From an uncultured Lawsonia sp. (GTDB lineage: Bacteria; Desulfobacterota; Desulfovibrionia; Desulfovibrionales; Desulfovibrionaceae): 64,000 nt of DNA. The position numbers and the translations under genes were made by a program. The stretch is from contig CAZIFC010000007.1 in assembly GCA_964538355.1 (NCBI GenBank), positions 5,924 to 69,923 on the forward strand, in the 5' to 3' direction. The notes under the pieces were generated by a model that saw only the letters and a list, made by a program, of their open reading frames with translations, was not told the DNA's origin and made no database searches. Of the stretch, positions 58,631 to 61,700 are shown piece after piece (position 1 is the stretch's first letter; the number at the start of each line of letters is the position of its first letter).

Positions 58631-60022
58631 TTATCGCAGCTGGCTGTAGGCTATTTTTCCTGAAGAATTTTTAGGAATGTCGGGAATAACCACGACTGCC
58701 ACCGCCGTAGGTGCAAGGTGAAGGGTTTTGCATATCCATATCTTCACCATTGGCGAGTCCTCATTGACAAGGTACACCTTGAGCATGTTATCATCACCAG
58801 TACAGGCACATTCCAAATTGAACTCACTGCGTATGAGTTGCTCGCACTGATCAAGGCTGATACGTAGTCCGTAAATCTTGACGAAACGTTTTAGCCTGCC
58901 AGTGATATAATAAAAGCCATCAACATCTCGGTGTGCTAGGTCGCCAGTCCTATATTCTCCTCGGAATTCGTCGCCAAGCAGTAAATCTTCCTTGCACTCG
59001 GCGTAGCCCATGGTGACGTTGGGCCCGCGATAGCAAAGCTCACCGTCGCCTTCTTGATTCGACAGAATATTGCCGTTTTCATCCAGCAGCGTTAGCTCTC
59101 CTTCAGGAATTGCTTTACCTATACTATTAATCTTTTTGTGAGCATACTGCGGTTCAAGGCGAGCCATGCGGGCTGAAGTTTCGGTGGTGCCAAAGGAAGG
59201 AATGAATCGCTTGCCCTGCTCTTGCGCATAGTCGGCCAGGTTTAGAAACATTTTATCAGTCAGCTTGCCACCGCCGGAGGCCAGCGTGGTCAAGTGTGGC
59301 AGTTTCATACGCTGGAAGCGCAGCTTAAAGAAGATTTCATAACTGAAGGGGACACCCGTAAAATTGGTTCCTCGTTCTCGCTTAATAAAATCCCAGAACA
59401 AAGGTGAGGCAAGGCTGGCTGAAGTCAGAAGGACAGTGCAGCCCATATAGAGGTGGGAGTTAATTACGTTCAGGCCCATGGTATAATTCATAGGCAAGGA
59501 ACAGATGGGACGTTCCTCGGATGTCCAGCCGAAGGCCACGGCCACATTGCGCGCGTTGGCCTCGATGTTGCCGTATTTGTGTCTAACGAGCTTGGGGCAA
59601 CCAGTCGAACCGGACGTGGTGAGCAACATGGAGAGCTGATCATTCACGGGATAGACTTCGTGTCCAGTTTTCAGAAGCGTGTAGGTATCGGTCTCGTAGA
59701 CCACCTTATAGGGAAATTCCGCAGCAATACGACGCGGTACCCAGAGCATGGCGGGCGTGTATGTCTCCATCAGGGAGCAAAGCAGGCCACGATCAAGTGA
59801 TTCATCCAAAAGCAGAGGAATACGGTCGTTATCATAGCACCCAATCAAGCCTATTAAACTTCCTATTGTATTTTCACAGAGGCAGATGACGACGGCGCGA
59901 AGCGGAATGTACGAGGCAAGTTTTTTCCCTTCCTCCACTAGTTTCTTATATGTGATATGGCCTCCGCGGTCATCAATGGCGGCGGTTATATCGGGATTGT
60001 ACTTTCCTTTCTGAAGCAGCAT
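58631..60022 (-). CDS. AMP-binding adenylation enzyme (acyl/aminoacyl-ACP ligase)
   Basis: TTSGSTGCPK, FGTTE, YRTGDLA, GRLKRF and terminal PKNSSGKI. Confidence 0.9.
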   Translation of the reverse strand: MLLQKGKYNPDITAAIDDRGGHITYKKLVEEGKKLASYIPLRAVVICLCENTIGSLIGLIGCYDNDRIPLLLDESLDRGLLCSLMETYTPAMLWVPRRIAAEFPYKVVYETDTYTLLKTGHEVYPVNDQLSMLLTTSGSTGCPKLVRHKYGNIEANARNVAVAFGWTSEERPICSLPMNYTMGLNVINSHLYMGCTVLLTSASLASPLFWDFIKRERGTNFTGVPFSYEIFFKLRFQRMKLPHLTTLASGGGKLTDKMFLNLADYAQEQGKRFIPSFGTTETSARMARLEPQYAHKKINSIGKAIPEGELTLLDENGNILSNQEGDGELCYRGPNVTMGYAECKEDLLLGDEFRGEYRTGDLAHRDVDGFYYITGRLKRFVKIYGLRISLDQCEQLIRSEFNLECACTGDDNMLKVYLVNEDSPMVKIWICKTLHLAPTAVAVVVIPDIPKNSSGKIAYSQLR

Positions 60023-60040
60023 TTCCTCATCTCCGAATAT

Positions 60041-60277
60041 TTACAGTTCGATGTTATACTTGTGTAGTATATGCAGGCCGTCTTCATAGGAATTAAAAGC
60101 AATAATATCCTCTGTATCTAGCTCAATATCAAATGCCTCTTCCAGACCGACGACCAAATTGAGTTTCCCGACGGAGTCCCAAGCGGGCAAGGTCGCAGCG
60201 GAAGCGTTTTCCACTTCATCCTCACCTATTATGAATACTTCCATTAATACAGATAGATACTTTTCTTTTGCAGTCAT
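60041..60277 (-). CDS. acyl carrier protein
   Basis: 78 aa, acidic, WDSVGKL with the phosphopantetheine Ser, LEEAFDIEL. Confidence 0.88.
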   Translation of the reverse strand: MTAKEKYLSVLMEVFIIGEDEVENASAATLPAWDSVGKLNLVVGLEEAFDIELDTEDIIAFNSYEDGLHILHKYNIEL

Positions 60278-60295
60278 AAAAGTCCTCTCTTACTG

Positions 60296-61036
60296 TTAAA
60301 TTTTTCCACCGTCGACCGGAAGGATCTGCCCTGTTATGAAAGAGGATTCGTCAGATGCCAAAAAACGGACGACAGAGGCGACTTCCTCCGCCGCCGCTGG
60401 TCGCTTGAGCAGGGAGGCGGCAATATAACCTTCCAGCCCCTTTTTGGGGTAATTGTCCAGCAGGGCCGTTTTGACAGCACCAGGAGCGACCGCGTTTACC
60501 CTGATGCCGAAGGGAGCGAATTCCCTAGCCATGAGTTGAGTAGCAAGCGAGAGTGCCGCCTTGCTTGAGGCATAGGCGAGGCGGCCTGTCTGCGGGCTGA
60601 TGGCTTGCGCGGAGGAAATATTGACAATGGAACCGCACCTGCTTCGCATCATTCTTCGAAGGACCTTTTGACAGATGAATACTTGTGAAAAATAATTTAT
60701 TTCAAATGTATGCCTCAATGTTTCCATGGAAGTTTCCAGTACTGTGCCCACGGCTGTTGTTCCGGCGTTGTTGACTAGGATGTGTATTGGCTGCTTGGTA
60801 TCAAAAATATCCTGAAGCCCCCGACGCATGGAATCTTCATCTCCAAGGGTGAAGAAGCAAGGGACAACGGATACCCTATATTGCAACGAAAGTTCAGTGA
60901 GCCATGCCGCGAAATTCCCATTCGGTCCACGACAGCAGGCCCATACGTTGGCACCGCAGCGCGCGAACTCCTCCGTAATTGCCCTCCCTATGCCACCGCC
61001 TGCGCCAGTAACTATGGCATTTTTTCCTTTCAGCAT
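60296..61036 (-). CDS. FabG-like short-chain reductase
   Basis: TGAGGGIG, NNAG, YASSK, IRVNAVAPG, TGQILPVDGG. Confidence 0.92.
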   Translation of the reverse strand: MLKGKNAIVTGAGGGIGRAITEEFARCGANVWACCRGPNGNFAAWLTELSLQYRVSVVPCFFTLGDEDSMRRGLQDIFDTKQPIHILVNNAGTTAVGTVLETSMETLRHTFEINYFSQVFICQKVLRRMMRSRCGSIVNISSAQAISPQTGRLAYASSKAALSLATQLMAREFAPFGIRVNAVAPGAVKTALLDNYPKKGLEGYIAASLLKRPAAAEEVASVVRFLASDESSFITGQILPVDGGKI

Positions 61037-61046
61037 GCTGTTTTCC

Positions 61047-61700
61047 TCAATCCTTCTTTCTTGAGACATACACCCGATTGGGTGGAATGCTTATCCCCAC
61101 GGGGACACTGCTTATTGCGGCTGCCCCCATGCCTAGGACAGCGTTTTCTCCAATCCGGAGGCGGCTGTCATTCCCACTTCCATTGCGAACCATGGCTCCT
61201 GCCCAAATATAGGCACTGTCCTCCACAATGACATTTCCTGCTACAAAGGAACCAGGGCCGAGATGGACATATTCGCCGAAATGGACGTCATGCCCGACCA
61301 CACAATTAAAATTGAATAAACCAAAATTTCCAAACGTGATGTTTCCGGAAAGCACTGCGCCAGCCATAATGATATTGCCGCGCGTCTTAGAGAGTAGCTC
61401 CTTGCTACCACGACCGAAGCTTACAGTATTGTGCACCATGTTCACAAAGGGAAGGTTGGAGAAGTTTTCAGCGATCTTCCGTCGCACATTGTTGTTCCCT
61501 ATGCCCATACCGAAAACAAAACCTTTTTCTGCAAGATGGGATGTTTTGTCTTCACTAACAATAGGAATACCAGTTATCGGTTCGACACTGTCTTGACGGT
61601 TGATAAACACTATCTCCGAAAAACCCATGGTATCGGCAATATCAACGACGGAACGTGCCATTCCTGACGAACCAAAAATTGCAATGCTGGTGTTGTCCAT
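61047..61700 (-). CDS. hexapeptide-repeat acyltransferase (NeuD/PglD/LegH type)
   Basis: IFGSSGMAR, GIGNNNVRRKI, VGHDV and left-handed beta-helix repeats. Confidence 0.85.
   Translation of the reverse strand: MDNTSIAIFGSSGMARSVVDIADTMGFSEIVFINRQDSVEPITGIPIVSEDKTSHLAEKGFVFGMGIGNNNVRRKIAENFSNLPFVNMVHNTVSFGRGSKELLSKTRGNIIMAGAVLSGNITFGNFGLFNFNCVVGHDVHFGEYVHLGPGSFVAGNVIVEDSAYIWAGAMVRNGSGNDSRLRIGENAVLGMGAAAISSVPVGISIPPNRVYVSRKKD

Follow-up and report, generated by a model that had tools for sequence, protein, structure and literature searches.

Within the 64,000-nucleotide stretch of DNA analysed here (the window; positions 5924-69923 of a contig of an uncultured Lawsonia sp., family Desulfovibrionaceae), four adjacent genes of a capsule locus encode an acid-activating ligase, an acyl carrier protein (ACP), a short-chain dehydrogenase/reductase (SDR) and an N-acyltransferase of the PglD type. 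We consider it probable (about 0.6) that these genes form one functional cassette that equips legionaminic acid at N7 with a short hydroxyacyl group borne by the carrier. An earlier note on this DNA had described the four open reading frames as a ligase, a dedicated ACP, a ketoreductase and a hexapeptide acyltransferase, and all four were confirmed at their coordinates on the minus strand (Table 1).

The cassette would replace the acetyl-coenzyme A (acetyl-CoA)-dependent LegH step of the GDP-route of legionaminic acid synthesis. The ligase would adenylate a small ready-made carboxylic acid and load it as a thioester on the Ser35-phosphopantetheine of the dedicated ACP. The FabG-like SDR would reduce the keto group of the tethered acyl residue, in the simplest case converting acetoacetyl-ACP to 3-hydroxybutyryl-ACP, and the PglD-type transferase would move the acyl residue onto the 4-amino group of GDP-4-amino-4,6-dideoxy-N-acetylglucosamine (GlcNAc) provided by LegB and LegC. 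LegG, LegI and LegF would then give CMP-Leg5Ac7R, where R is the acyl group, and a giant polymerase together with the kps machinery would bring the sugar into the capsule. We infer the order of these steps, the donor (ACP rather than CoA) and the acceptor. The proposal of the earlier note that an unusual acyl group is installed by an ACP-tethered route gains support, at the level of inference, from the intact motifs of the enzymes, from the presence of a sole PglD-type enzyme, from its linkage to the SDR and ACP genes in eight of eight loci and from the occurrence of the cassette in bacillosamine-type loci.

Enzymes of the cassette

The acyltransferase is composed of a PglD_N domain (PF17836, 2.3e-13) and hexapeptide repeats (PF00132, 7e-8). 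It matches the NeuD/PglB/VioB family TIGR03570 at 1e-34, which is below the cut-off of this model, and is aligned over the full length with its relatives in the PDB: WeeI (4m9c, 9e-20), PglB, PerB, PglD and VioB. All 24 sequences compared have the histidine at position 137, which aligns with the AHD motif of WeeI and hence with the catalytic histidine of GHD type. The cassette acyltransferase is the single PglD_N protein of the host genome (95% complete), and no second acyltransferase was found in the complete capsule island. Because it is the only PglD-type protein both in the genome and in the locus, it most likely fills the LegH step, for which there is no other candidate.

A word-indexed search of 5.8 billion proteins revealed that the clade of this acyltransferase is narrow: 18 clusters have at least 53% identity, after which the identity drops to 33%. 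The clade bears two insertions which are missing from other PglD-like proteins. Eight loci with a clade member were examined, namely the window and those numbered L001, L011, L012, L013, L101, L102 and L103. The transferase gene is followed by the SDR gene and then by the gene of the 78-aa carrier in all eight, and the ligase comes next in seven. Each of the eight lies among legionaminic acid-type genes, most of them with a giant Capsule_synth-related protein beside the ligase; in L001, L013, L102 and L103 a 1457–1733-aa homologue of the candidate capsule polymerase of the window comes after the ligase. This context argues for acyl-ACP as the donor of the transferase. A predicted complex of the transferase trimer with the ACP scored 0.21 against a mark of 0.32 and is given no weight in either direction.

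The carrier has no Pfam domain even at E = 10, and PF00550 in particular gave no match. Its profile finds in the PDB only acyl carrier proteins and D-alanyl carrier proteins (best 2lml, 7e-6), whose DS motif aligns with the W-D-S35 motif of the carrier; W33 and S35 are invariant in nine homologues of 32–83% identity. The AlphaFold2 model of the protein has a predicted local distance difference test score (pLDDT) of 93.8, its top 50 Foldseek matches are all ACPs, and it superimposes on E. coli butyryl-ACP (1l0h) with a template modelling score of 0.84 and a root-mean-square deviation of 1.8. By profile and predicted fold, a helical bundle, the 78-aa protein is thus assigned as an acyl carrier protein. 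Phosphopantetheinylation of Ser35 is predicted; two genes for 4'-phosphopantetheinyl transferases (PPTases, PF01648) are present elsewhere in the host genome, and PPTase genes are found in the related loci L003, L005 and L006 as well.

The ligase is a full two-domain ANL enzyme, with the core motifs A3 (TSGSTGCPK, residues 136–144), A5 (GTTETSAR), A7 (YRTGD), A8 (GRLKRFVK) and A10 (SGK with the lysine K456) intact. Its A4 region, LPMNYTMGLN, lacks the FDxS aspartate of the amino-acid-activating domains of nonribosomal peptide synthetases and is nearly invariant in 120 homologues, which argues for a plain carboxylic acid as the substrate. Arg285, situated shortly past the A5 motif, is invariant in the homologues and would suit a polar substrate, which we take as a hint. 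Of 5954 homologues scored, the top 120 are mostly 54–65% identical to the window ligase and the closest reach 80–85%. Sequence and fold searches of the PDB returned generic ANL enzymes only, with ~20% identity (MenE, oxalyl-CoA synthetase, feruloyl-CoA synthetase and EntE); the nearest folds to the AlphaFold2 model (pLDDT 88) are MenE, oxalyl-CoA synthetase and EntE, and the top folds all belong to the ANL superfamily. The best NCBIfam names include long-chain-fatty-acid ligases, all of them far under the cut-offs. Transfer of the acyl residue to a carrier protein and not to CoA is predicted from adjacency alone: the ACP gene adjoins the ligase gene in 16 of the 18 non-LuxE loci described below.

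The SDR possesses the motifs TGAGGGIG (at residue 21), NNAG (at residue 100) and Y166xxxK170, and its closest relatives in the PDB are FabG and glucose/ribitol dehydrogenase. Because the FabG models of NCBIfam give 178–179 bits, below their equivalog cut-offs, the protein is classified as FabG-like and not as the housekeeping FabG. Its homologues begin to align at residues 9–12, so that translation may in fact begin at Met12 (61036).

Occurrence of the cassette and lineage of the ligase

The four-gene set was also found in Desulfosporosinus youngiae, in Schinkia azotoformans and on an abundant gut contig, in each case beside genes for a PglF-like dehydratase, a DegT aminotransferase and a PglC-like transferase. 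Judging by this gene content, these loci encode a bacillosamine-type pathway. Since the same cassette serves the legionaminic acid and the bacillosamine routes, which share an intermediate of the 4-amino-4,6-dideoxy-N-acetylhexosamine (HexNAc) type, we infer a common natural acceptor, a nucleotide-linked 4-amino-4,6-dideoxy-GlcNAc (HexNAc). A PPTase gene lies within these bacillosamine-type loci and is once fused to a hexapeptide transferase gene. The fusion is encoded at L006:15318-16469, in the polysaccharide locus of S. azotoformans, and comprises 383 aa with the hexapeptide-repeat transferase joined to the PPTase; L003 and L005 encode the two proteins separately, in neighbouring genes.

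A metagenome scan gave 80 further ligase loci, 34 of them with at least 3.5 kb on both sides. The full-flank loci fall into a minimal architecture, consisting of ACP and SDR with or without the transferase (8 of 34), an architecture with ketosynthase III right after the ligase and ACP (10 of 34) and one with LuxE and LuxC (16 of 34). In the 18 full-flank loci of non-LuxE type, ACP and SDR adjoin the ligase in 16 and a PglD-type transferase is present within 4 kb in 13.

The lineage of the ligases was followed in a maximum-likelihood tree of 42 sequences obtained by a quick search. The LuxE type occupies one side of a branch with a support of 100 in the Shimodaira–Hasegawa-like approximate likelihood ratio test (SH-aLRT), and the ketosynthase types mostly cluster. 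The window ligase belongs to a set of ten (SH-aLRT 95), all ten of which are minimal, with neither ketosynthase nor LuxC/E, and in which legionaminic acid and bacillosamine contexts are mixed. Because the tree groups ligases by architecture, the architecture of the cassette is judged to track the lineage of its ligase. In the lineage of the window ligase the acid is probably taken ready-made, because a chain-building enzyme is absent there.

Some other forms of the cassette deserve description. A Bacteroidales-type form with ketosynthase III, two carriers, two SDRs and the ligase is found in L100 (NZ_OY725780.1, 11177-16293) and in L030-L064; the ketosynthase form with two carriers and two SDRs is seen in a Parabacteroides distasonis record. 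It matches the gene set tied to N-3,5-dihydroxyhexanoyl bacillosamine in Flavobacterium psychrophilum (PMC6519341). On a gut Firmicutes contig (L007:7905-8798) a protein with the metallo-beta-lactamase (MBL) fold has a carrier homologue as its C-terminal fusion partner, and at L002:5620-6575 a carrier homologue and an MBL-fold protein are encoded by adjacent genes. MBL-fold genes occur in 10 of the 34 full-flank loci, and such an arrangement suggests that the MBL-fold protein is a thioester-handling partner in some forms of the cassette.

The capsule island

The minus strand carries every gene of the region (Table 1). In the order of transcription, which begins beyond the window, an integrase, KpsF, KpsM, KpsT, a KpsE-sized protein, KpsD, KdsA and a KdsB-KdsC fusion are followed by the PtmE-like and LegF-like enzymes, the SGNH-like protein, the four-gene cassette and the candidate polymerase, and then by LegB, LegC, LegI, LegG, a transposase fragment, KpsC and KpsS. 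Because LegB, LegC, LegI and LegG exceed the curated NCBIfam cut-offs, the region is assigned as a complete capsule island of the ABC-transporter type (kps) for a legionaminic acid polymer. The legionaminic acid pathway of the earlier note is thereby upheld, the PtmE-like and LegF-like enzymes being present too. The same note had placed the cassette in one tight run between neuA and legB. The genes are indeed packed, with gaps or overlaps of at most 23 bp between the four members of the cassette, but the SGNH-like gene stands before the acyltransferase gene and the polymerase gene separates the ligase gene from legB.

Table 1. Positions in the window, strand and basis of assignment for the genes of the capsule region
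Feature	Position	Strand	Basis and remarks
ANL-superfamily acid-activating ligase, 463 aa	58631-60022	minus	PF00501 2.5e-39; predicted to act as acyl-ACP synthetase
Acyl carrier protein, 78 aa	60041-60277	minus	Profile and fold; predicted phosphopantetheine site Ser35
FabG-like classical SDR ketoreductase, 257 aa	60296-61069	minus	adh_short_C2 8e-52
PglD/NeuD/VioB-family left-handed beta-helix N-acyltransferase, 217 aa	61047-61700	minus	PglD_N and hexapeptide repeats; predicted LegH-equivalent
SGNH/GDSL-like cytoplasmic protein, 300 aa	61700-62602	minus	Weak Pfam GDSL; lineage-specific accessory, outside the conserved cassette
CMP-nonulosonate synthetase, LegF-like	62690-63391	minus	CTP_transf_3 1.8e-22; PseF model 153 bits, under cut-off
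PtmE-like sugar-1-phosphate nucleotidyltransferase	63384-64000, runs past window end	minus	NTP_transferase
Candidate capsule polymerase, 1492 aa	54149-58627	minus	Weak Capsule_synth match; immediately downstream of the ligase
legB	53140-54189	minus	TIGR04180, 517 bits (cut-off 475)
legC	51982-53133	minus	TIGR04181, 513 bits (cut-off 420)
legI/neuB	50951-51979	minus	TIGR03569, 474 bits (cut-off 400)
legG/neuC	49623-50954	minus	TIGR03568, 410 bits (cut-off 236)

The island is edged by mobility genes, and within the window it is poorer in G+C than the DNA that flanks it. On the contig beyond the window (L010:9690-14135) the island is flanked by genes for a tyrosine integrase and a relaxase/RepB-primase, an arrangement consistent with a mobilisable element. 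Between kpsC and legG (48000-49410 of the window) there is a very AT-rich kilobase (26.8% G+C) together with a 145-aa DDE transposase fragment. Among public sequences the region is closest to a metagenome-assembled genome of the Desulfovibrionaceae, whose ligase has 81% identity. Horizontal acquisition of the cassette together with the island fits these data, because a homologue, with 44% identity, is present in only 1 of 100 relatives of the host genome. Identity with an E. coli K-locus was rejected, as a megablast search of complete E. coli genomes gave no match to the region.

The 5' part of the PtmE-like gene meets a short N stretch just past the window (L010:1274-1290), and the listed open reading frame starts late and has 230 aa. 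The reading frame is not interrupted, and CBS-type PtmE homologues can be aligned with it over 306 residues; the protein is 52% identical to a 353-aa CBS-type homologue in L013. A truncated PtmE was rejected as an explanation, since the 5' part runs into the N stretch of the assembly.

An atlas search with the SGNH-like protein, whose Pfam GDSL matches are weak, gives SGNH clusters at 0.96, and its N-terminus is not hydrophobic on visual inspection. The gene is present in L001 and L013 and was not found in L011, L012 and the Firmicutes loci; it was rejected as a member of the cassette since it is missing from most cassette loci. In the window and in L013 it directly follows the CMP-synthetase gene, an order which recalls E. 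coli K1 NeuA, in which synthetase and esterase are fused. In L013 the homologue (6584-8239) is a tandem duplication of 551 aa.

Acyl group, alternatives and known systems

Our leading guess for R, which we put forward tentatively, is 3-hydroxybutanoyl. It was chosen in part because acetoacetate is reasonably stable as a free acid and is, to our knowledge, the one free 3-keto acid of which this can be said. Further reasons are that this group is a well-documented non-acetyl substituent of such sugars (PMC9676051, PMC7685785), that a reductase, a carrier and a transferase of the same types yield it in Pseudomonas syringae (PMC3927599), and that the form with ketosynthase and two reductases corresponds to the gene set of F. 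psychrophilum, whose sugar carries the C6 group 3,5-dihydroxyhexanoyl (PMC6519341); a single reductase in the absence of a ketosynthase would, by analogy, lead no further than C4. Some other short hydroxy- or ketoacyl group has to be taken just as seriously; for example, a 2-keto acid reduced to a 2-hydroxyacyl group, or another small polar acid, fits equally well. It is rather unlikely that both of the most far-reaching consequences hold, i.e. that a PglD-family enzyme takes the acyl residue directly from the carrier, the first CoA-independent case to be shown for the family, and that the N7 group is one not yet reported on legionaminic acid. If true, such a group would mean a new class of capsule or glycan epitope in gut Desulfovibrionaceae and many Firmicutes.

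Several points weigh against our reading of the cassette. The solved relatives of the transferase (PglD, WeeI, PglB, PerB and VioB) are, as far as is known, all CoA-dependent, and free acetoacetate as the substrate of the ligase is an assumption. The actual substrate is not readable from the sequence or the fold of the ligase, the nearest structures having ~20% identity. The function of the cassette is predicted from its genes. The legionaminic acid-type locus L101:2660-4337 has the transferase, the SDR and the carrier with no adjacent ligase in the analysed part of its contig (all but ~4 kb). In Acinetobacter baumannii the lgaABCHIFG module makes Leg5Ac7(3-hydroxybutanoyl) (PMC9676051). As in our proposal, legionaminic acid receives a non-acetyl acyl group at N7 through a replacement of the LegH-type step, but the module makes this sugar (Leg5Ac7RHb) with a variant transferase and has no ligase, ACP or reductase (PMC9676051): the transferase and hydrolase genes alone are swapped, and central metabolism presumably supplies the acyl group as a CoA thioester. 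Finally, by analogy with Aeromonas, where the trio of ACP, FabG and ligase was reported without a PglD-type partner (PMC7874193), this trio can work with other transferases.

The last point belongs also to another explanation, in which the PglD-type enzyme, as an ordinary acetyl-CoA-dependent LegH, makes Leg5Ac7Ac while the other three proteins act on a different acceptor, be it in a later re-acylation, in O-acylation of the polymer (perhaps together with the SGNH protein, in the manner of DltD) or at the lipid end of the capsule. In addition to the Aeromonas trio, which lies near pseudaminic acid genes (PMC7874193), this explanation has in its favour that a PglD-type gene occurs within 4 kb in just 13 of the 18 non-LuxE loci. 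The SGNH gene abuts the cassette in the window, and the solved relatives of the transferase are CoA users as far as is known. However, the transferase clade is tied to SDR and ACP in 8 of 8 loci, and it is at most 33% identical to other PglD-like proteins, from which its specific insertions set it apart. The SGNH gene was found neither in L011 and L012 nor in any of the Firmicutes cassettes, and its product displays no hydrophobic export signal by eye; the island contains no MBOAT or other acyl acceptor enzyme. On balance we regard this explanation as unlikely, though it deserves to be kept in mind.

Two further explanations differ in the nature of the activated acid, and both appear highly improbable. 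In a Dlt-like aminoacylation an amino acid such as D-alanine would be loaded on the carrier to give a sugar of the Leg5Ac7Ala type, which exists in E. coli O161 (PMC7685785). The carrier does have weak DltC matches, and DltA is among the PDB relatives of the ligase. Nevertheless, the nearly invariant A4 region of the ligase is devoid of the aspartate motif of amino-acid-activating domains, and the ketoreductase-type SDR, present in nearly all minimal loci, would have no role in a simple aminoacylation. Activation of a medium- or long-chain fatty acid, leading to a lipidated sugar or to modification of a lipid anchor, is in line with surveys of enterobacterial and Aeromonas flagellin islands, in which such genes were read as fatty-acid synthesis and lipo-sugars were suggested (PMC4875605, PMC7874193), and with the NCBIfam names of the ligase, for all that these are far under their cut-offs. 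Against it, neither a ketosynthase nor a dehydratase nor an enoyl reductase is encoded in the cassette; the SDR is conserved, yet a long-chain 3-keto free acid is implausible as a ligase substrate; and the capsule lipid linker is already covered by KpsS and KpsC. Moreover, the known products of related gene sets are C4–C6 hydroxyacyl groups (PMC3927599, PMC6519341).

Transfer of a short hydroxyacyl group to N7 would matter because non-acetyl N-acyl groups on sialic-acid-like sugars shape antigenicity as well as phage and lectin recognition. The genes installing N-acyl groups are unknown for several organisms, as in the case of the glyceroyl group of Tannerella forsythia (PMC5378307). The cassette offers a candidate solution that is compact, portable and very common, its ligase family having thousands of members in gut and environmental metagenomes. 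Once the acid substrate is worked out, sequence could serve to predict the N-acyl groups encoded by many loci for capsules, O-antigens and flagellin. Biochemistry of the cassette would reveal whether PglD-type transferases can use acyl-ACP and would establish what kind of capsule this mobile island specifies in a lineage of gut Desulfovibrionaceae.

In the literature searched, no biochemical study of the cassette and no description of a capsule for Desulfovibrio relatives was found; one paper merely mentions legI as a variable gene. Three features of the present system are undescribed there: the ligase-primed minimal form, its strict pairing with a PglD-type clade of its own and its use in place of LegH in a legionaminic acid capsule locus. 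ACP-dependent supply of sugar N-acyl groups as such is the subject of several proposals based on genetics (PMC3441752, PMC12208996, PMC3927599, PMC6519341). The idea of a carrier route is therefore less new than the earlier note implied, because routes with a PglD homologue and an ACP were proposed before in F. psychrophilum (PMC6519341) and P. syringae (PMC3927599), and because trios of ACP, FabG and AMP-ligase beside pseudaminic acid genes were already noted in Aeromonas (PMC7874193).

The cassette was set against WbeL/RfbK, VioR/VioB/ACP and WfpC-G by the descriptions in the papers, not by sequence. The tetronate genes rfbK-O/wbeK-O of Vibrio cholerae O1 encode the 471-aa ligase WbeL and the carrier RfbK (PMC3441752, PMC12208996). 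Here, too, an AMP-ligase of similar size and a small carrier provide an amino sugar of a surface polysaccharide with its N-acyl group. In contrast to the window cassette, this set contains LuxC/LuxE-like and alcohol dehydrogenase genes and makes a 2,4-dihydroxybutanoyl group; matched by description, it corresponds to the LuxE-type branch of the ligases and not to the minimal one. Flagellin islands of Aeromonas group II and of enterobacteria harbour acp, 3-oxoacyl-ACP reductase, AMP-dependent synthetase, luxE and luxC genes (PMC7874193, PMC4875605). They share with the window an uncharacterised trio of ACP, FabG and AMP-ligase among nonulosonic acid genes and differ from it in the presence of LuxE/LuxC, in belonging to pseudaminic acid flagellin systems with no PglD-type partner described, and in having been read by their authors as fatty-acid synthesis.

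In the viosamine island of P. syringae, vioS (ketosynthase III), acp, vioR (FabG) and vioB lead to N-3-hydroxybutanoyl viosamine, and the sugar is lost in a vioR mutant (PMC3927599). Both systems have an ACP of their own, a FabG-like reductase and a transferase of the NeuD/PglB/VioB family acting on a 4-amino-4,6-dideoxy sugar, whereas the P. syringae system is primed by a ketosynthase and not by a ligase, has dTDP-viosamine for a flagellin glycan as the acceptor and involves no nonulosonic acid. In F. psychrophilum (wfpC-wfpG) the structure of the sugar is known, and the PglD homologue WfpG is predicted to take the 3,5-dihydroxyhexanoyl group from the ACP WfpD (PMC6519341). This system resembles the window cassette in combining a PglD homologue with a locus-specific ACP and a FabG-type reductase and, as predicted, in acylating nucleotide-linked 4-amino-4,6-dideoxy-GlcNAc at its 4-amino group with a hydroxyacyl residue (PMC6519341). 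The two differ in the origin of the chain, which is built by two ketosynthases in F. psychrophilum and would come from an AMP-ligase, with no ketosynthase, in the window, and in their destination: a UDP-linked bacillosamine precursor for an O-antigen in the former and a predicted GDP-linked legionaminic acid precursor for a kps capsule in the latter.

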